From the NCBI GenBank assembly GCA_035514255.1, contig DATKBG010000202.1, forward strand, positions 1 to 36,303: a stretch of DNA of 36,303 nt. The letters run 5' to 3'. Below the pieces are notes generated by a model that worked only from the letters and a program-made list of their open reading frames with translations, ran no database searches and was not told the origin of the DNA. Origin of the DNA: Acidimicrobiia bacterium. Its GTDB lineage: Bacteria; Actinomycetota; Acidimicrobiia; Spongiisociales; UBA11373. Positions within the stretch are counted from its first letter, which is position 1. Each line of letters begins with the position of its first letter. The position numbers were made by a program, and so were the translations under genes. Shown here one piece after another: positions 5,739 to 28,471 of this stretch.

Positions 5739-6226
5739 CCAGCGATGCCATCCCGGTGGAGCTGATCGGTGTCCGTATCGAGCTGCCCACCAATACACCG
5801 ATCGTCCTCCTACGCGAACGCGGCGGCGATCGGTTCCTGCCGATCCTCATCGGCGCCAACGAAGCCGCCGCTATCGCCTTCGCCTTAGAGGGAATGGAAC
5901 CACCCCGCCCCATGACTCACGACCTGCTGCGCGACGTCACCGTCGCCCTCGGGGCGACCGTGGAGCGCGTGGTCCTCACCGACCTACGCGACGGGATCTA
6001 CTTCGCCGACCTGGTCCTCGCTACGAATGGCACCGAGACCATCGTGTCCGCCAGACCATCAGACTCGATCGCACTCGCCGTCCGCTCCGGTGCGCCCATC
6101 TTCGTGAGTCCGGCCATCCTCGACGAAGCGGGGGTCGAGATACGCGACGAGGACGAGGAGGAGGAGGTCGCCCGATTCCGCAACTTTCTCGCCGACGTTT
6201 CACCGGACGACTTCGGGACAGGCTGA
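5735..6226 (+). CDS. Bifunctional nuclease family protein (DUF151, Rv1829-like)
   Basis: It reads IVLLRERGGDRFLPILIGANEAAAIAFALEG ... PRPMTHDLL and has an acidic C-terminal tail. There is a GTGA overlap with the hpt stop. Confidence 0.85.
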   Translation: MTSDAIPVELIGVRIELPTNTPIVLLRERGGDRFLPILIGANEAAAIAFALEGMEPPRPMTHDLLRDVTVALGATVERVVLTDLRDGIYFADLVLATNGTETIVSARPSDSIALAVRSGAPIFVSPAILDEAGVEIRDEDEEEEVARFRNFLADVSPDDFGTG

Positions 6227-6235
6227 CAGAGCCGA

Positions 6236-6267
6236 GTACTTGGTACTTGGTACTTGGTATTTGGTAT
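6236..6267. repeat. Tandem heptamer array (GTACTTG)x3-GTATTTG-GTAT
   Basis: Read directly from the sequence. It is an AT-rich island 10 nt after the nuclease stop and 38 nt upstream of the putative merR2 -35. Confidence 0.9.
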
Positions 6268-6304
6268 CCCGCAGCGCCAAACGCGAGGTTTTCCACAGGG
6301 GTTG

Positions 6305-6334
6305 TTGACAACTCGGGTGCGCGATTCCTAACTT
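6305..6334 (+). promoter_or_regulatory. Candidate sigma-70-type promoter for the second merR gene
   Basis: TTGACA (6305-6310), an 18-nt spacer, then TAACTT (6329-6334). A stem-loop ggtagttccc-ttc-gggaaattacc follows in the leader, before GTG 6404. Confidence 0.4.
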
Positions 6335-6403
6335 CCAGTCGGGTAGTTCCCTTCGGGAAATTACCGTGGTGTAAGCTTCGCTCTGGGAAGGTGAGGTCTG
6401 GCC

Positions 6404-6874
6404 GTGAATAGTGAACAGGGTTTCCGCGCACCCGAGGTGTGCCGACTCGTCGGAATCTCATATCGCCAACTCGACTACTGGGCACGCACCGACCTGCTGA
6501 AGCCCTCCCTCCAGGAGGCGCAGGGCTCGGGTACGCAACGCCAGTACTCCTTTTCCGACGTCGTGCAACTGCGGGTGGTCAAGCGATTGCTCGACGCCGG
6601 CATGAGCCTCAAGAAAGTCCGGCAGGCGATGGACATCCTGCGCGATCGCCTCGACAGCGACAACCCGCTGAGCGAGGTGACCCTCCTCTCGGACGGGCAG
6701 ACGATCTACGCCGCCAACAGCGACCAGGACGTCGTCGACCTCTTCCGCGGGGGGCAGGGAGTGTTCGGCATCGCCGTCGGACCGGTCCAGGAACAGCTCG
6801 AGGGGGAAATACTCGAATTGCTGCCCGAGCGTGCCAGCATGACCGGAGCAGAACACGCCACCATGGAGGCCTGA
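6404..6874 (+). CDS. MerR-family transcriptional regulator (Rv1830-like)
   Basis: The HTH reads FRAPEVCRLVGISYRQLDYWARTDLLKPS ... GTQRQYSFSDVVQLRVVKRLLDAGMSLKKV. The start is GTG. Confidence 0.85.
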   Translation: MNSEQGFRAPEVCRLVGISYRQLDYWARTDLLKPSLQEAQGSGTQRQYSFSDVVQLRVVKRLLDAGMSLKKVRQAMDILRDRLDSDNPLSEVTLLSDGQTIYAANSDQDVVDLFRGGQGVFGIAVGPVQEQLEGEILELLPERASMTGAEHATMEA

Positions 6875-6875
6875 G

Positions 6876-7307
6876 CTGACCGTCGACTTCCGGACCGAAG
6901 CGGACCTGGTCGCCTTCGCTCACGAGAGCGAGAGGCAGTTCGCACGGCTCCTCGACTTCTACGGGATCACGTGGGAGTACGAACCGGCATCGTTCGCCAT
7001 CGAGTTCGACGAGACCGGTGAAGCAGCCAAGTACTTCACGCCCGACTTCTACCTGCCCGACGAGAACATGTACATCGAGATCACCACGATGAACCAGAAG
7101 CTCGTCACCAAGAAGAACCGCAAGGTGCGTTTGCTGCGTCAACATCATCCGCAGGTCTCCTGCAAGGTGTTCTACCAGCGGGACTACCTGCACCTTCTGA
7201 TCAAGTACGGCCTCGAAACCACCCCGGAACTCGACGACGTCACCGCACCGACCCGTATCCCCGGTCCGGTACAGGTCATCGACCTGGGTGATTCCGAGGT
7301 CGGCTAA
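6876..7307 (+). CDS. Conserved-looking hypothetical protein, possibly with a PD-(D/E)xK-like nuclease fold; start codon unresolved
   Basis: My own translation of the frame gives LTVDFRTEADLVAFAHESERQFARLLDFYGITWEYEPASFAIEFDETGEAAKYFTPDFYLPDENMYIEITTMNQKLVTKKNRKVRLL ... The frame opens after TGA 6840-6842 and contains no ATG, GTG or TTG before ATG 7068. The track therefore lists only 7068..7307. Confidence 0.5.
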   Translation: MTVDFRTEADLVAFAHESERQFARLLDFYGITWEYEPASFAIEFDETGEAAKYFTPDFYLPDENMYIEITTMNQKLVTKKNRKVRLLRQHHPQVSCKVFYQRDYLHLLIKYGLETTPELDDVTAPTRIPGPVQVIDLGDSEVG

Positions 7308-7313
7308 GAGCCT

Positions 7314-7358
7314 CCGGTACTTAGTATTTGGTACCAAGTACTAAGTACCAAATACCGG
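7314..7358. repeat. Imperfect 21-bp-stem palindrome built from GTAYTTG-type heptamers (CCGGTACTTAGTATTTGGTACCAAGTACTAAGTACCAAATACCGG)
   Basis: By hand pairing, 17 Watson-Crick plus 2 G-T pairs out of 21 around a CAA loop. It starts 7 nt after the TAA at 7305-7307 and ends 62 nt before gcvT GTG 7421. Confidence 0.85.
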
Positions 7359-7407
7359 CCAGGGGAGTGCCGTCAGGACTTCGAGCCTTGAGACTGAGGA
7401 CGCTCAC

Positions 7408-7413
7408 TAGAGT
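7408..7413 (+). promoter_or_regulatory. Possible -10 hexamer (TAGAGT) giving a leaderless gcvT transcript
   Basis: The TAnnnT hexamer ends 7 nt before GTG 7421, and no Shine-Dalgarno lies between them. There is no convincing -35. Confidence 0.3.
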
Positions 7414-7420
7414 CCCGCCC

Positions 7421-8467
7421 GTGCACCGCCGATCACCGCTTCATGGGGCCAACGAGGCCCTCGGTGCTCGTTTCACGCCCTTCGGAGACTGGGAGATGCC
7501 GCTCCAGTACGACGGCACGCTCGCCGAACACGCTGCGGTGCGTACCGGCGTCGGGGTCTTCGATGTCTCCCATCTCGGTCGATTCGAGGTCGCTGGATCG
7601 GAGGCAGCCGAGCTGGTCGGATCGATCCTCACCAACGACCTGGGCAAGATCACACCGGGCCGCTGTCAGTACTCGCTGATCCTCAACGATCGGGCCGGCA
7701 TCCTCGACGACATCGTGGTCTGGTGGCTCGAGCCGGACCGGCTGCTCGTCCTGCCGAACGCCGCCAACCACGAACGGGTGATGGCGCGGTTCGCCGAAGC
7801 AGCTGGATCCAACACACGCGTCTCAGACCTGCGTGATTCGACTGCCCTTCTCGCCGTCCAGGGCCCCGATGGCCCCCGCGTCCTCTCGGAGGGTCTTGGC
7901 GCGGCGCCCAACCGCCACCGCGTGGTCATCGCGGGCGACGCGATCGTCGCTGGCACCGGGTACACCGGTGAGGCCGGGGGAGAAGCGGTGGTGCCGCGGG
8001 CGCAGGCAGACGCCGCGCTCCAGGCGATCCTGAAGGCGGGGGCTACGCCGTGTGGTCTTGGTGCACGCGACACGCTTCGGCTCGAGTTCGGCCTGCCCTT
8101 GTGGGGGCAGGACATCGACGAGACCACCGACCCGATCGAGGCGGGACTGGCCTGGGCGGTCGGCTGGGACACCGCCTTCGACGGCAAGGAGGCTCTCGAG
8201 CCCCGCCGCCATCAAGACCCCACCCGCGCCCGCGTCGGATTCGTCCTCAACGACCGCCGACCGCCCCGGCACGGTTACCGGATCCGGTCTGGCTCCTCGG
8301 ATGGCGAGGTGACCAGTGGCAACTACAGCCCGACGCTGGAGCGTGGGATCGGGATGGGCTACCTCGCTCCGCCGGCCCCCGACGACCAGACTGCGGTGGA
8401 AGTCGAGGTGCGGGACCATTGGGTGCCCGCCCGTCTCGTCGACATGCCCTTTGTGAGGCGCTCATGA
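7421..8467 (+). CDS. gcvT: Aminomethyltransferase (glycine cleavage T protein)
   Basis: It reads SPLHGANEALGARFTPFGDWEMPLQY ... GVFDVSHLGRFEV ... TGYTGEAGGE. GTG 7421 was chosen because the upstream part of the track ORF runs through the heptamer repeat. Confidence 0.9.
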   Translation: MHRRSPLHGANEALGARFTPFGDWEMPLQYDGTLAEHAAVRTGVGVFDVSHLGRFEVAGSEAAELVGSILTNDLGKITPGRCQYSLILNDRAGILDDIVVWWLEPDRLLVLPNAANHERVMARFAEAAGSNTRVSDLRDSTALLAVQGPDGPRVLSEGLGAAPNRHRVVIAGDAIVAGTGYTGEAGGEAVVPRAQADAALQAILKAGATPCGLGARDTLRLEFGLPLWGQDIDETTDPIEAGLAWAVGWDTAFDGKEALEPRRHQDPTRARVGFVLNDRRPPRHGYRIRSGSSDGEVTSGNYSPTLERGIGMGYLAPPAPDDQTAVEVEVRDHWVPARLVDMPFVRRS

Positions 8468-11266: not shown

Positions 11267-11268
11267 GA

Positions 11269-11289
11269 CTGGGCAGCAACGCTGCCCAG
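11269..11289 (+). terminator. GC-rich hairpin directly after gcvPB (CTGGGCAGC-AAC-GCTGCCCAG)
   Basis: A perfect 9-bp stem with a 3-nt loop begins 3 nt after the TAG stop. No U-tract follows. Confidence 0.45.
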
Positions 11290-11291
11290 TC

Positions 11292-11414
11292 GTACCTGGT
11301 ACTTGGTACTTGGTACGAAGAGAGAGCAGCTCACAGCCGACAGCTCACAGCCAGAAGGCCGCGTGGGTACCTGGTGCGGGTGTCTGCGAATACCAAGTAC
11401 CAAATACCAAATAC
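11292..11414. repeat. 123-nt element bounded by inverted heptamer arrays
   Basis: The left arm is GTACCTGGTACTTGGTACTTGGTAC (11292-11316) and the right arm is TACCAAGTACCAAATACCAAATAC (11391-11414). They are about 21/24 complementary. The interior holds a direct repeat CAGCTCACAGCC-GA-CAGCTCACAGCC (11327-11352). Confidence 0.85.
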
Positions 11415-12461
11415 TCAGCCGTTCGCGTACCCGGCCTCAACCCTTTCCCTGACACGGCTCCGCGTCTCTTCATCGCAGAAAGCCGCTTCCACCGCATTGA
11501 GGGTGATGGCTCGCAGGTCGTCTCGATCGAACCCCTGATCCTCTACGGCGAGCGTGAATTCGCGGCTCATCGACGTGGCGCTCATCAGGCGGTTGTCGGT
11601 GTTGATCGTGGTGGTGAACCCGGCTCGGTAGAGCAGGCCGATCGGGTGATCGGCAGCAGTTGGATACATGCCGGTGTCGAGGTTGGAGTACGGACACAGC
11701 TCGAGGGCGATGCCGCGATCGCGGACCTCGGTCGCCACCGGCCCCAACTCGACGATCTCGCCGTCTTCGACGGTGGTGTCTTCGATGATCCGAGCCCCGT
11801 GCCCGATCCGCTCGGCGCCCTGGTCGAGTGCCGCTCGGATACTGCCGACGCCATCACCTTCTCCGGCATGGATGGTGATGCGCAGGCCACCGCGGCGAGC
11901 GATCTCGATGGCCTCGGCGTGGAGTGACGGGGGGAAGCCCGCCTCTGGCCCGGCAAGGTCGAAGCCGACGACTCCCTCACCGGCGAAACTCGCGGCCGCC
12001 TCGGCGACCTCGACCGAGTCGTCCTGCTGACGGAGGGCGTCTACCAGGATGCGAACCGGGAGCCCGGTATCGGCCTCGGCTCGGGAGAACCCGTCGATCG
12101 CCGCCTCCAGCACGTCGGTTCGCGACATCCCGCGTTCGAGGTGGAGGGTGGGGGCGAATCTGATCTCGGCGTACACCACTCCTTCAGCCGCAAGGTCGGA
12201 AGCGGCCTCGTAGGCGACCCGGGCGACGGCCTGGGGCGTCTGCATGACCCCGAAGGTGTGGGCGAAAGCCTCCAGATACCGCTCCAGCGAGAACGAGCCG
12301 TCCTGATGGAACCAGCGGGCCAGAGATGCAGCGTCGTCGAAGGGGAGGCGGTCGTAACCAGCGTCGCTGGCGAGGTCGAGGATGGTCTGCGGCCGCAGAC
12401 CGCCATCGAGGTGATCGTGCAGCAGGACCTTCGGGAGCGCTCGGACTTCTTCGGGTTTCAT
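11415..12461 (-). CDS. add: Adenosine deaminase
   Basis: It has LPKVLLHDHLDGGLRP, ITIHAGE and TINTDNRLMS motifs. The internal ATG (MKPEEV) was chosen over the longer track ORF. Confidence 0.9.
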   Translation of the reverse strand: MKPEEVRALPKVLLHDHLDGGLRPQTILDLASDAGYDRLPFDDAASLARWFHQDGSFSLERYLEAFAHTFGVMQTPQAVARVAYEAASDLAAEGVVYAEIRFAPTLHLERGMSRTDVLEAAIDGFSRAEADTGLPVRILVDALRQQDDSVEVAEAAASFAGEGVVGFDLAGPEAGFPPSLHAEAIEIARRGGLRITIHAGEGDGVGSIRAALDQGAERIGHGARIIEDTTVEDGEIVELGPVATEVRDRGIALELCPYSNLDTGMYPTAADHPIGLLYRAGFTTTINTDNRLMSATSMSREFTLAVEDQGFDRDDLRAITLNAVEAAFCDEETRSRVRERVEAGYANG

Positions 12462-12471
12462 GCCCTTCAGG

Positions 12472-12954
12472 CTACCCAGCGGGTTCCGAGCTGAGCCACC
12501 AGCGCCGTTCGACGATCTCCTCGTCGTGCAGGGTCGTCGCCATGACCTCGCCGGGTACGAATCCGAGGGCCTCGAAGAACCGCTCGCCGTCGATGTTGCC
12601 CAGCACCACATCCGCTCGGACTGGCCGTTCCGGCTCGGTGACCCGAGCAACCTCGACGAGAGCACGCCCTACCCCATGGCGCCGGAATCGGGGCTCGGTG
12701 GACACATCGCCGACGATGGTCGCCGCCTCAGACTTCTCGGCGTCGACGAACCCGACGATCTGATCCTCCCACTCGGCGACGCGCAGTCCACCGGCGAGAA
12801 GGCGCCGCCGCAGAGCAGCAGGGGAGTAGGCCGCTTCGAGGAACCTGCCGACCGTCTCTGGCTTGAGGAGGCCGGCGTAGCTGTCCCAATAGGCGGCGTC
12901 AGCGACTCTCCGCACCGCAACCAGGTCGTCACGAGTGGCCGGACGGACTCGCAT
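12472..12954 (-). CDS. GNAT-family N-acetyltransferase
   Basis: It starts MRVRPATRDDLVAV and has the acetyl-CoA motif RRHGVGRALV. It lies 10 nt upstream of add on the same strand. Confidence 0.8.
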   Translation of the reverse strand: MRVRPATRDDLVAVRRVADAAYWDSYAGLLKPETVGRFLEAAYSPAALRRRLLAGGLRVAEWEDQIVGFVDAEKSEAATIVGDVSTEPRFRRHGVGRALVEVARVTEPERPVRADVVLGNIDGERFFEALGFVPGEVMATTLHDEEIVERRWWLSSEPAG

Positions 12955-24575: not shown

Positions 24576-24851
24576 CTTCGAATGCTCATCCCTGAGCACT
24601 CCATAGCGAGCACGCACGTCTACGAATTCGATTCAAGCCCTCGACCGATTAGTACCGGTCGGCTGAACGCATTGCTGCGCTTACACCTCCGGCCTATCAA
24701 CCTGATGTTCTGTCAGGGGTCTTACCCGCTTGATGCGGTGGGAGATCTCATCTCGGAGCCGGCTTCGCACTTAGATGCCTTCAGCGCTTATCCGTTCCGT
24801 ACGTGGCCAACCAGCCGTGCCTTTGGCAAGACAACTGGCACACCAGAGGTA

Positions 24852-24883
<32 letters not shown>

Positions 24884-24910
24884 CTCTCCTCAAATCTCCT
24901 GCGCCTGCGA

Positions 24911-24942
<32 letters not shown>

Positions 24943-24961
24943 AAACCCAGCTCGCGTACCG

Positions 24962-25037
<76 letters not shown>

Positions 25038-25549
25038 CCCTTGCCGTCGATATGGACTCTTGGGCAAGATTAGCCTGTTATCCCCGGGGTACCTTTTAGC
25101 CGATTAGCCATGGCGCTTCCACATGCCACCATGGGATCATTAGGCCCTGCTTTCGCATCTGCTCGACTTGTAGGTCTCGCAGTCAAGCTCCCTTGTGCCC
25201 TTACGCTCAACGCCCGATTGCCAACCGGGCTGAGGGAACCTTTGGGCGCCTCCGTTACACTTTAGGAGGCCACCACCCCAGTGAAACTGCCCGCCAGGCA
25301 CTGTTCCTGATCCGGATAACGGACCGAGGTTAGAAGCTCAGTATGTCAAGGGTGGTATTTCAAGGTCGACTCCACGAAAGCTAGCGCCTCCGCTTCCAAG
25401 TCTCCCACCTATCCTACACATAACAGACTAAACTCCAATGCCAAGCTGCAGTAAAGGTCCCGGGGTCTTTCCGTCCTGTCGCAGGTAGTGAGCATCTTTA
25501 CTCACACTGCAATTTCGCCGAGTCCGTGGTCGAGACAGCGCCCAAGTCG

Positions 25550-25604
<55 letters not shown>

Positions 25605-26347
25605 CACGCTTGTTACTCCCCTCGCAGGAACCATATGTCCCCGAGGGTGGCCGGATCATTTCTGCCCGGCTCCTCATGTCGCCATGAGGGTCGGACTGTC
25701 TCATCGCCGCTCATGCGGCGCCTGGCGTACAGTCTCTGAGGATCCCAGGAGGATCGCTTCCTTTGGTCGAGCTCGCTGCTTGCCGGTTCCGTTCATCTCG
25801 TAGGCGAGGTGAACGATCCGTTCGAAGCCAGTCGGCTCGAGGTGCTCTCTACTTCGCAACGACCTGACGATCGATGCGAACAGCTCGAAATCCCGGCGCT
25901 TCACCTCGAGCGGCCAAACCTCGAAGAACGGAAGGATCCGATCAATGAGGTCCTGACGGCTCGATACGCCGTAGACATCTACGTTGCTGCGCGGACCCTT
26001 CGACCGGACGCCGCCGCACCCGAAGGTGGCGGCGAGTCGCTCGAGGATCTCGCGGTCCCGCTCATGTTGTGAGACCTGGAACACGGCAGTCACCTGCCAG
26101 CCCCGGGTCTTTCGTACATGTGGGTTCTTGTGGAACGAGATGGAGAAGCAACCTTCACCATCGACGAATCCACTCACCCATCGCGGGTCGAGAGCGCGAA
26201 TCCTGGTTTCCTGCTGATTGTCCGCACCGGACGGATTTTCACTGCCCATGTCGTGACCCTATGTCGGGCCTGTGACATGGACGAGTACCGCCGGATACTC
26301 GGATGTTCCAGCATATAGCCAGGTTTACCCACCGCCAGTAGGTACTA
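25605..26347 (-). mobile_element. Group I intron in 23S rRNA helix 69, inserted between E. coli positions U1923 and C1924
   Basis: The exons read ...GGCGGUAACUAUAACCGU | intron | CCUAAGGUAGCGAAAUUCC... The 5' exon ends in U, which can wobble-pair with the intron guide sequence GCGGU. The intron ends in G. The P7 strands are GACUGU / ACAGUC in the context CAGAGACUGUA ... GAGACAGUCC, and the P8 hairpin is CGCCGC-AUGA-GCGGCG. A P9 hairpin has a GCGA loop, followed by further 3' hairpins. Confidence 0.85.
25701..26249 (-). CDS. LAGLIDADG homing endonuclease, single-motif (homodimer) type, I-CeuI/I-CreI-like
   Basis: It has one LAGLIDADG motif, VSGFVDGEGCFSI, and a FQVSQHERDREILERL block typical of the family. 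The protein is 182 aa and lies wholly inside the intron. Confidence 0.88.
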   Translation of the reverse strand: MGSENPSGADNQQETRIRALDPRWVSGFVDGEGCFSISFHKNPHVRKTRGWQVTAVFQVSQHERDREILERLAATFGCGGVRSKGPRSNVDVYGVSSRQDLIDRILPFFEVWPLEVKRRDFELFASIVRSLRSREHLEPTGFERIVHLAYEMNGTGKQRARPKEAILLGSSETVRQAPHERR

Positions 26348-27303
26348 ACGGTTATAGTTACCGCCGCCGTTTACCGGGGCTTTGGTTCAAAGCTTCGCTT
26401 CCGAAGAAGCTAACCTTTCCCCTTAACCTTCCGGCACCGGGCAGGCGTCACAGCGTATACGTCGTCTTGCGACTTAGCACGCTGCTGTGTTTTTAGTAAA
26501 CAGTCGCTTGGGCCGAGTCACTGCGGCCTCATCGAGCTCCGGGACGCGAAGTCCCATCACTCTACCGAGGCGCCCCTTCTCCCTAAGTTACGGGGCCATT
26601 TTGCCGAGTTCCTTGACCACGGTTCTCTCGCTCGCCTTGGTATTCTCTACCTGTCCACCTGTGTCGGTTTGGGGTACGGGCACCCCGTGCACTCGCTAGA
26701 GGTTGTTTCTTGGCGGCATGGACGTTCGGCAGCTTCCCCTTAATCGGGTCGGCATCCCGCCTCAGGCTTCGTGGGATCCGGATTTGCCTAGATCCCGCCC
26801 TACACGGTTACCCCGGGTCAACCAACGCCCGGGTCTGCTTATCCTTCCGCGTCACCCCATCGCTGGCCTAGTACCGGCTGGGTCGGTAGGCCCCGAAGGG
26901 CTTTCCTTAGCAAACCGGGTTCGGCCTGGGCGCGCACGTGGTGGTACTGGAATATCAACCAGTTGTCCATCGACTACGCTTCACAGCCTCGCCTTAGGTC
27001 CCGACTAACCCTGGGCGGACGAGCCTTCCCCAGGAAACCTTGGACATTCGGCGGGGGAGATTCGCACTCCCCTTTCGCTACTCATGCCGGCATTCTCACT
27101 TGAACGGCCTCCACGACTGGCTCACGCCGCCGCTTCGCTGGCCGTTCAACGCTCTCCTACCGATCCCGTCACCTGGACCTGTCCCCGAAAGAACAGGCCT
27201 GGCTATTGACGAAATCCCGCAGCTTCGGTGCTGAACTTGAGCCCCGTTACATTTTCCGCGCAGAACCACTCGACCAGTGAGCTGTTACGCACTCTTTAAA
27301 GGA

Positions 27304-27334
<31 letters not shown>

Positions 27335-27902
27335 TTGTGCAATTCCACATCGTTCCCCACTTAGTTCAGACTTAGGGACCTTAGCTGGCGATCTGGGCTG
27401 TTTCCCTTTCGACCAATGAGGCTCATCCCCCATGGTCTGACTGCCGCGCTGTGGCACCATGAAATTCGGAGTTTGATTGGGGTCGGTAAGCTTGTTGGCC
27501 CCCTTACCCATTCAGTGCTCTACCTCCATGGTGGAACGCGCGACGCTAGCCCTAGAGCTATTTCGGAGAGAACCAGCTATCGCCGAGTTTGATTGGCCTT
27601 TCACCCCTATCCACAGGTCATCCCCCAAGTTTTCAACCTTGGTGGGTTCGGGCCTCCACGAGGTCTTACCCTCGATTCACCCTGCCCATGGATAGATCAC
27701 TCGGCTTCGGGTCTAGAGCACGCGACTAGTCGCCCTATTCAGACTTGCTTTCGCTGCGGCTTCGGCTCACGCCTTAACCTTGCCACGTACTGCTAACTCG
27801 CCGGCTCATTCTTCAAAAGGCAGGCCGTCAGGTCCCGAAGGACCCTCCGACTGCTTGTAAGTTTACGGTTTCAGGTTCTATTTAACTCCCCTCACCGGGG
27901 TG

Positions 27903-27944
<42 letters not shown>

Positions 27945-28471
27945 TGGGTAGTACTTAGCCTTACGAGGTGGTCCTCGCAGATTCACACGGGATTTCACGT
28001 GCCCCGTGCTACTTGGGAAATCCACCAGGAGCTCAGTGCGCTTTCGCCTACAGGGCTGTTACCTTCTATGGCCTGCCTTTCCAGGCATGTTCGACTAGCA
28101 CCTGAGTTTGTAACTCCTTGACGGTTCCGGTGGACCGTCAGGTGACTCCCACAACCCCAGCATGACAACGGCACCGGCCTATCACGCCACACTGGTTTGG
28201 GCTCTTCCCGTTTCGCTCGCCGCTACTCCGGGAGTCGCTGTTGCTTTACTTTCCTCGGGGTACTGAGATGTTTCAATTCCCCCGGTTACCTTTACCGGTC
28301 CTATGTGTTCAGACCGGAATGACTGGGCATTACCCCAGACGGGTTCCCCCATTCGGACATCCCCGGATCAGTGCCTGCTTGGCGGCTCCCCGAGGCTTAT
28401 CGCAGCCTGCTACGTCCTTCATCGGCTCCCAGCGCCAAGGCATCCACCGTAAACCCTTAGTAGCTTGAATC

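Follow-up and report, generated by a model that had tools for sequence, protein, structure and literature searches.

A GTAYTTG array upstream of merR2 is probably a solo copy of a dispersed heptamer repeat linked to S23p cassettes

The window analyzed here is a 36,303-nucleotide stretch of DNA from an Acidimicrobiia bacterium whose assembly (G000) comprises 1.74 Mb in 291 contigs and is 74% complete. With 67.4% G+C, the genome is GC-rich, as the original prediction had stated. Positions 6236 to 6267 of the window read (GTACTTG)3-GTATTTG-GTAT on the plus strand, and Tandem Repeats Finder describes this array as having a period of 7, 4.4 copies, and 95% matches, which confirms the tandem GTACTTG/GTATTTG heptamers reported there. 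The array begins 9 nt 3' of the TGA codon of a bifunctional-nuclease gene (PF02577) and ends 37 nt upstream of a TTGACA box (6305 to 6310), with TAACTT (6329 to 6334) lying beyond a spacer of 18 nt. This promoter-like TTGACA-N18-TAACTT region precedes merR2, a gene of the MerR family (PF13411). An open reading frame at 6843 to 7307 (plus strand) follows merR2; its first canonical start codon lies only at 7068 or later, and its similarity to phage endonuclease I (PF05367; E = 9e-4) is weak and falls below the cutoff. No inverted partner of the array was found within 200 nt, either by a partner scan or by direct reading, and no Rfam family matches positions 6200 to 7700 of the window at E values up to 1.

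The GTAYTTG heptamer occurs 17 times in the window, compared with 1.53 ± 1.26 expected occurrences, and none of 100 shuffles contained 17 or more. The three further sites that had been noticed in the window are also real. The first, at 7314 to 7358, begins 7 nt 3' of the stop codon of the small open reading frame and is an inverted, nearly loopless pair with a left arm, GGTACTTAGTATTTGGTAC, and a right arm, CAAGTACTAAGTACCAAATACC. Its predicted RNA fold (−23.6 kcal/mol; z = −3.67) was equalled by none of 200 shuffles. The other two sites are the arms of a second pair. A GC-rich hairpin predicted by folding, ACTGGGCAGC-AAC-GCTGCCCAGT, at 11268 to 11290 (plus strand) ends directly 5' of the left arm, which spans 11292 to 11316 (plus strand) and which reads GTACCTG GTACTTG GTACTTG GTAC, as identified by inspection and by Tandem Repeats Finder. 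Nested between the arms at 11327 to 11352 (plus strand), a tandem-repeat scan identified an array of a second family, of the CAGCTCA type, ending in CAGCCAGA. The right arm reads GTATTTG GTATTTG GTACTTG GTATTCG on the minus strand, spans 11387 to 11414, and abuts the stop codon of a convergent gene (open reading frame 11415 to 12665, minus strand). The whole 149-nt paired unit folds with a z score of −4.7 on the plus strand and −7.2 on the minus strand. The statement that no copy lies inside coding sequence holds for the tandem arrays, which are confined to the DNA between genes, but not for single heptamers, which occur at 154, 7028, 7202, 15660, and 24495 within genes and the 5S rRNA gene.

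Two other features of the window were observed in passing. The stretch CTAGAGTCCCGCCCGTGCACCGCCGATCACCGCTTCATGGGGCCAACGAGGCCCTCGGTGCTCG, which precedes the glycine-cleavage genes at 7400 to 7470, is nearly identical in three species, whereas the adjoining DNA is not, and it has no Rfam match, glycine riboswitch included, at E values up to 1. At 24629 to 28470 (minus strand), the match to 23S rRNA spans 3,842 nt compared with 2,925 nt in the model, and an open reading frame lies at 25701 to 26249.

When the whole assembly was searched for GTAYTTG, the repeat proved to be a dispersed intergenic family. It comprises 135 to 144 arrays, depending on the criterion, at about 120 loci essentially all between genes, and not the four sites first described. 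Nearly all arrays that appear to lie inside a gene are at the over-called 5' ends of crude gene calls. Copy number per array peaks at 3 to 4 (2 units, n = 17; 3 units, n = 52; 4 units, n = 54); longer arrays comprise five of 5 units, five of 6 units, and one each of 11 and 14 units. Since contig ends are enriched in arrays, at twice the genome-average frequency, the true number of arrays is probably higher. Restriction-site avoidance was considered and rejected, the frequency of GTAC being unremarkable (observed/expected, 0.86).

The tandem-repeat spectrum of G000 contains 675 arrays of period 7, compared with 16 of period 5, 83 of period 8, and 91 of period 10. Predicted genes contain only 27% of the arrays of period 7, compared with 68 to 89% of those with other periods. 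The units AAGTACC and AAATACC account for 146 of the period-7 arrays. More than 12 heptamer unit families coexist in the genome and form mosaics, with CAGCTCA, CTACTCG, CCCTCGC, AATCGCG, AATTCGC, and ACCAGCT among the other units, and about 21 GTAYTTG arrays continue into one common linker and then into a CAGCTCA array. With its tandem excess, period-7 excess, and intergenic preference, the array at 6236 to 6267 is a heptanucleotide long simple-sequence repeat of the STRR-like kind. As a separate observation, many units in G000 and in the sister species G001 seem to consist of a core plus three variable bases, as in AGCY+NNN arrays ending in AGCCAGAG before a loop and in TCGC+NNN arrays, and the commonest variant differs between the two species.

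GTAYTTG arrays less than 400 nt apart form pairs of fixed polarity. The order (GTAYTTG)n...(CAARTAC)n was found in 21 pairs and the opposite order in none, and the CAGCTCA family obeys a like rule (7 to 0); the rule fades past about 1.5 kb. The interiors of the pairs span 3 to 209 nt and are mutually unrelated; some are short loops, some are arrays of other heptamers, and some are a GC-rich element about 170 nt long. Neither target-site duplications nor conserved flanks were found. Inverted pairs fold better than shuffled sequences, with z scores from −3.7 to −7.2. The C/T state of the units does not covary between paired arms (25 alike compared with 32.5 expected), so that no sign of selection for perfect pairing of the stem is seen. 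About two-thirds of the GTAYTTG loci are solo arrays, and a trace of a partner was found at 2 of 78. A rule by which arrays point away from the nearest gene was considered and rejected for solo GTAYTTG arrays (37 versus 37).

Other repeats in these genomes have features of their own. CTACTCG arrays are strongly one-sided: of 27 solo arrays, 25 have the gene on the 3' side, and those in co-directional gaps run against transcription by 16 to 4. A position rule absent from GTAYTTG may thus apply to this family. The GC-rich dispersed element, of about 170 to 200 nt, has hairpins of the type CTCCCCCC-GAAG-GGGGGGAG at both ends (in G000, for example, C40:2338-2546 and C213:895-1094) and often lies between inverted GTAYTTG arms. 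Tandem copies of it are present at contig ends in G001 (L005 7570-8038 and L009 1-70), where the element also fills slots that carry heptamer arrays in G000.

Comparison with relatives indicated changes in the identity of the repeats at fixed positions. Matches to (GTAYTTG)3 number 133 in G000, 14 in G001, and 0 in 23 other genomes of the family. Their wider distribution is patchy, covering four families of the order and 10 of 401 genomes of the class, and the reversed control gave 0. G001 also has a period-7 excess, with other leading units; one of them, AACGCTC, is absent from G000. In 200 kb of G005, from another genus, the excess is small (23 arrays of period 7, compared with 7 of period 8), and none of the units recurs. 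Across 32 orthologous gaps, some units are kept, and many face a different heptamer or the GC-rich element. The slot upstream of merR2 holds four copies of GGTTGCC-type units in G001, at the identical place and in the identical register, and one GGTTGCC copy in a third species; it holds no array in G005 and G002, both from other genera. The promoter-like TCCACAGGGGTTGTTGACAAC...TAACTT is conserved in all genomes compared at this site, and a metagenome scan for it returned only two contigs, both from one further species. The slot of the pair at 7314 to 7358 contains only CTACCAG CTACCGG between the same flanks in G001 and (GGTTGCC)4...(GGCAACN)3 in the third species. The gap that holds the arm at 11387 to 11414 carries other repeats in G001, where the assembly breaks, and a different heptamer array in the third species.

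A single gene of the S23p family (23S rRNA intervening-sequence protein; PF05635/TIGR02436) was found in the G000 assembly, at 2368 to 2727 of contig C163. It is flanked by arms with the GTAYTTG unit and polarity, namely, (GTATTTG)3GTAC at 2287 to 2314 and CAAGTACCAAATACCAAATAC at 2744 to 2764, and these arms form the outermost stem of the predicted fold of the cassette (z = −4.6). A dCTP-deaminase-like gene lies on one side of the cassette and an ABC ATPase gene on the other. Within the cassette (C163:2287-2764; L176 1405-1882), an internal TTGACA and a G-rich stretch were observed before the GTG start codon. The cassette flanks are 28 nt apart in G001, where the neighboring terminator hairpin is kept, and the cassette is absent from the orthologous site in G006. 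The empty site in the sister species shows that the cassette is a presence/absence difference of about 500 nt. The C163 cassette has terminal inverted repeats built of heptamers, which form a stem of about 25 to 30 bp as in S23p-type cassettes, and the array at 6236 has only one arm. No PF05635 gene is enclosed by this array or by the pairs in the window, and the array is therefore a gene-less relative and not a cassette.

The best solved homologue of the C163 S23p protein is XCC0516 of Xanthomonas (2GSC). S23p belongs to the Pfam family 23S_rRNA_IVP, which presumably also has the Avd accessory proteins of diversity-generating retroelements among its members. A reverse transcriptase was considered as a templating enzyme and set aside: the only one is in G001 and is of the defense type UG22. 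This 584-aa UG22-class protein (G001:C29:35472-36038; L173 511-2265, minus strand) was not found in the G000 assembly.

Tandem heptamers are a regular feature of S23p genes in this order. Among 28 such genes, period-7 arrays were found on both sides of 22 and on one side of 6, with the upstream arm usually 47 to 76 nt before the domain, and 8 of the 28 carry GTACTTN-type arms. In five genomes, the arm heptamer is also the genome's own dispersed repeat, compared with 0 for reversed-pattern controls, and every genome tested shows dispersed copies of its arm unit. Dispersed matches to the arm unit GTAYTTG number 133 in G000 and 33 in G131; the corresponding numbers are 33 in G031 and 49 in G435 for GTACTTA, 19 in G336 for CAGTTCA, and 39 in G001 and 16 in G000 for CAGCTAC. 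S23p proteins with GTACTT-type arms are only 40% identical, and those of the sister-species pair are 52% identical, indicating that the arms do not simply travel with the S23p gene. The cassette of G005 has arms of 12 and 9 repeats, yet no recurrent heptamer family was found in the 200 kb sampled from that genome. No S23p partner was found in the incomplete G000 assembly for its other large families (CAGCTCA, CTACTCG, and others).

Heptamer repeats are an already described class, and what is new here is the Acidimicrobiia host and the GTAYTTG unit. Xanthomonas carries 186 GGGAATC arrays, mostly of 4 units and some in inverted pairs (PMC4692102), and marine Beggiatoaceae carry 169 sets of TAACTGA in 2 to 6 copies (PMC4679880). 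Like these repeats and the cyanobacterial STRR/GGGGAYT, the GTAYTTG family has a 7-nt unit, usually in 2 to 6 copies, that is specific to a lineage, occupies more than 100 intergenic loci per genome in both orientations, varies in length between close relatives, and has no known function. It differs from them in its host, an Acidimicrobiia bacterium of 67% G+C; in its unit, which is undescribed in the literature searched; in the coexistence of more than 12 mosaic-forming unit families; in its fixed pair polarity; and in that a link to S23p cassettes was tested. The earlier remark that this is not a described family is thus correct for the heptamer and incorrect for the class. In the literature searched, no paper was found that connects genome-wide heptamer repeats with S23p cassettes. 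In Xanthomonas campestris, GGGAATC repeat no. 15 (622956 to 622983) lies between bccP (XCC0517) and XCC0516 (Rehm et al., supplementary table, PMC4692102). Since XCC0516 is of the S23p family, a classic heptamer-repeat genome shows a like neighborhood.

The second system to which the family can be compared is the intervening sequence of 23S rRNA. In Coxiella burnetii, this element contains an S23p open reading frame and a 28-bp terminal stem that is cut by RNase III, and it carries GACAGAT heptamers, of which some strains have 2 copies and others 3 (PMC4990558). The open reading frame-bearing intervening sequences of C. burnetii, Leptospira, and Brucella are like the C163 cassette in having an S23p gene within stem-forming inverted repeats of 25 to 30 bp and tandem heptamers of strain-variable copy number in the arm region, and they are regarded as selfish elements (PMC4990558). 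They sit in helix 25 or 45 of 23S rRNA, whereas the C163 cassette is absent from those positions and lies free between two protein genes. Most members of the GTAYTTG family also differ in being gene-less, and many consist of one arm. Cleavage of the stem by RNase III is known for the Coxiella element (PMC4990558), and the GTAYTTG pairs may be processed likewise.

The approximately 135 dispersed runs, together with the identity between their unit and the cassette arms, identify the array at 6236 as a dispersed repeat and not as a MerR binding site. We consider it probable that positions 6236 to 6267 are a solo copy of a dispersed heptamer family that is linked to S23p cassettes, spreads through the mobility of cassettes or hairpins, and is inert at merR2. 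The array most likely descends from, or is maintained with, an S23p/intervening sequence-type cassette with matching arms. Arrays would spread through the mobility of S23p-type cassettes or of gene-less hairpins and would afterward grow, shrink, and homogenize by replication slippage. Transcribed pairs would give double-stranded RNA stems of 21 to 30 bp, of the type that RNase III cuts in rRNA intervening sequences. A solo arm such as that at 6236 would probably have no activity beyond, at most, weak termination of the upstream operon and would take no part in the control of merR2.

Slippage might also account for the family without any connection to S23p if the arrays were plain microsatellites, that is, neutral heptanucleotide repeats that polymerase slippage built up from chance seeds. 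In many bacteria, heptamers are the most frequent type of long simple-sequence repeat, and a proposed cause is slippage tied to the polymerase footprint (Mrazek 2007, as cited in PMC4679880 and PMC4692102). Neighboring units in GTAYTTG arrays are alike in C/T state (CC 166 and TT 84, versus 97 for CT plus TC), in keeping with this proposal. Arrays of at least five GTAYTTG copies also occur singly in many phyla (at least 117 stretches, mostly single pure arrays); these were not counted as evidence, because ordinary microsatellites would produce as many, given about 1,170 heptamer classes and 185,000 genomes. However, chance seeds do not explain the presence of one heptamer at about 120 loci when it is absent or rare in other genera. 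Nor do they account for the fixed polarity of the pairs, for a copy number that peaks at 3 to 4 with no steady fall from 2, or for the identity with cassette arms in five genomes, and we regard this explanation as unlikely. As a property of the array, the slippage-prone tract suggested in the original prediction is plausible, since the merR2 slot holds 1 and 4 copies in two sister species; the array lies outside the open reading frame and the promoter spacer, and no effect on the promoter is indicated.

It appears less likely still that the arrays act post-transcriptionally throughout the genome, each heptamer binding one single-strand nucleic-acid binder of the cold-shock type or S23p itself. 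A single cold-shock protein spans one heptamer, and proteins of this type have been proposed as readers of TAACTGA repeats (PMC4679880). Three units also amount to 21 bp, or two helical turns, and the arrays peak at 3 to 4 units. The placement of the arrays argues against such a function. They have no preferred place relative to starts or stops, and they occupy 17.5% of convergent, 17.5% of divergent, and 12.5% of co-directional gaps, counts that are approximate because the genes were called with a crude GC3-based finder that gives over-long 5' ends. In co-directional gaps the strand bias is only weak, with the U-rich reading the rarer (20 versus 38). In addition, sister species differ in what a slot holds, whereas the genes compared and the merR2 promoter-like region remain constant. 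The exact bracketing of the merR2-open reading frame and gcvT-PA-PB units noted in the original prediction is a consequence of arrays occupying the gaps that are available.

Similar data bear on whether the arrays serve as intrinsic terminators or transcript-end stabilizers, either alone or, in a REP-like manner, with a preceding GC-rich hairpin. The array at 6236 lies shortly 3' of a stop codon and was scored as terminator-like by a simple terminator scan. A clean GC-rich hairpin ends 0 to 4 nt 5' of about 20 to 38 of 132 GTAYTTG arrays, and the pairs fold well. However, the gene end on the hairpin side is a stop in 10 cases and a start in 9. Occupancy is equal in divergent and convergent gaps, and it is the U-rich reading that is rarer in co-directional gaps. 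The solo array at 6236 folds on itself only weakly, through its GTAC palindromes (centroid, −17 kcal/mol), and no better than shuffled sequence (z = −0.98). We therefore consider a terminator function very unlikely.

Among the three roles offered in the original prediction, a REP/MITE-like dispersed element came closest, in that the family is genome-wide, intergenic, and often arranged in inverted pairs. In its fixed-polarity inverted doublets and its numerous solo copies, the family is reminiscent of REPINs and REP singlets, with which it shares short palindromic doublets and singlets between genes and a lineage-specific turnover. REP/REPIN elements have one conserved palindrome of 20 to 35 nt and a RAYT, whereas the GTAYTTG arms are tandem heptamers without a RAYT. 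A search for the RAYT gene (Y1 transposase, PF01797) found 0 in G000 and 0 in the 97%-complete G001, and the gene was detected in 6 of 14 control genomes. Likewise, a classical MITE moved by a DDE transposase does not fit a family that lacks target-site duplications and whose interiors and flanks are not conserved. Movement by either enzyme is thus highly improbable.

MerR operators sit within the spacer between the −35 and −10 boxes. An operator or upstream element for merR2 or another MerR regulator, as first suggested for this array, is favored only by the position of the array next to a gene of that family and can be ruled out with near certainty, because the array is swapped or missing in relatives where both the regulator and its promoter region are conserved, and its repeats are direct and not inverted, end 37 nt upstream of the −35 box and so outside the spacer, and recur genome-wide at about 120 loci beside unrelated genes.

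The linkage of the dispersed heptamer family to S23p cassettes leads to a more speculative proposal. S23p, which is a pentameric four-helix bundle, might be the trans-acting partner of heptamer-armed hairpins, and the dispersed family of each genome might then be the gene-less progeny of that genome's cassette, whose arm unit would set the heptamer that spreads. We put this forward only tentatively and do not expect it to be the probable outcome; if true, it would explain how the heptamer repeats of bacteria, first known in 1990 and including STRR and Xanthomonas GGGAATC, came about. For annotation, neither merR2 nor the glycine-cleavage genes should be assigned the repeat as a regulatory site. 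The dispersed arrays also cause assemblies of the genus to break in intergenic gaps. Three sister species with genes that are approximately 90% identical hold different heptamers in shared slots, and the match between cassette arms and dispersed repeats provides a testable handle on the origin of heptamer repeats and on why their unit is seven bases long.
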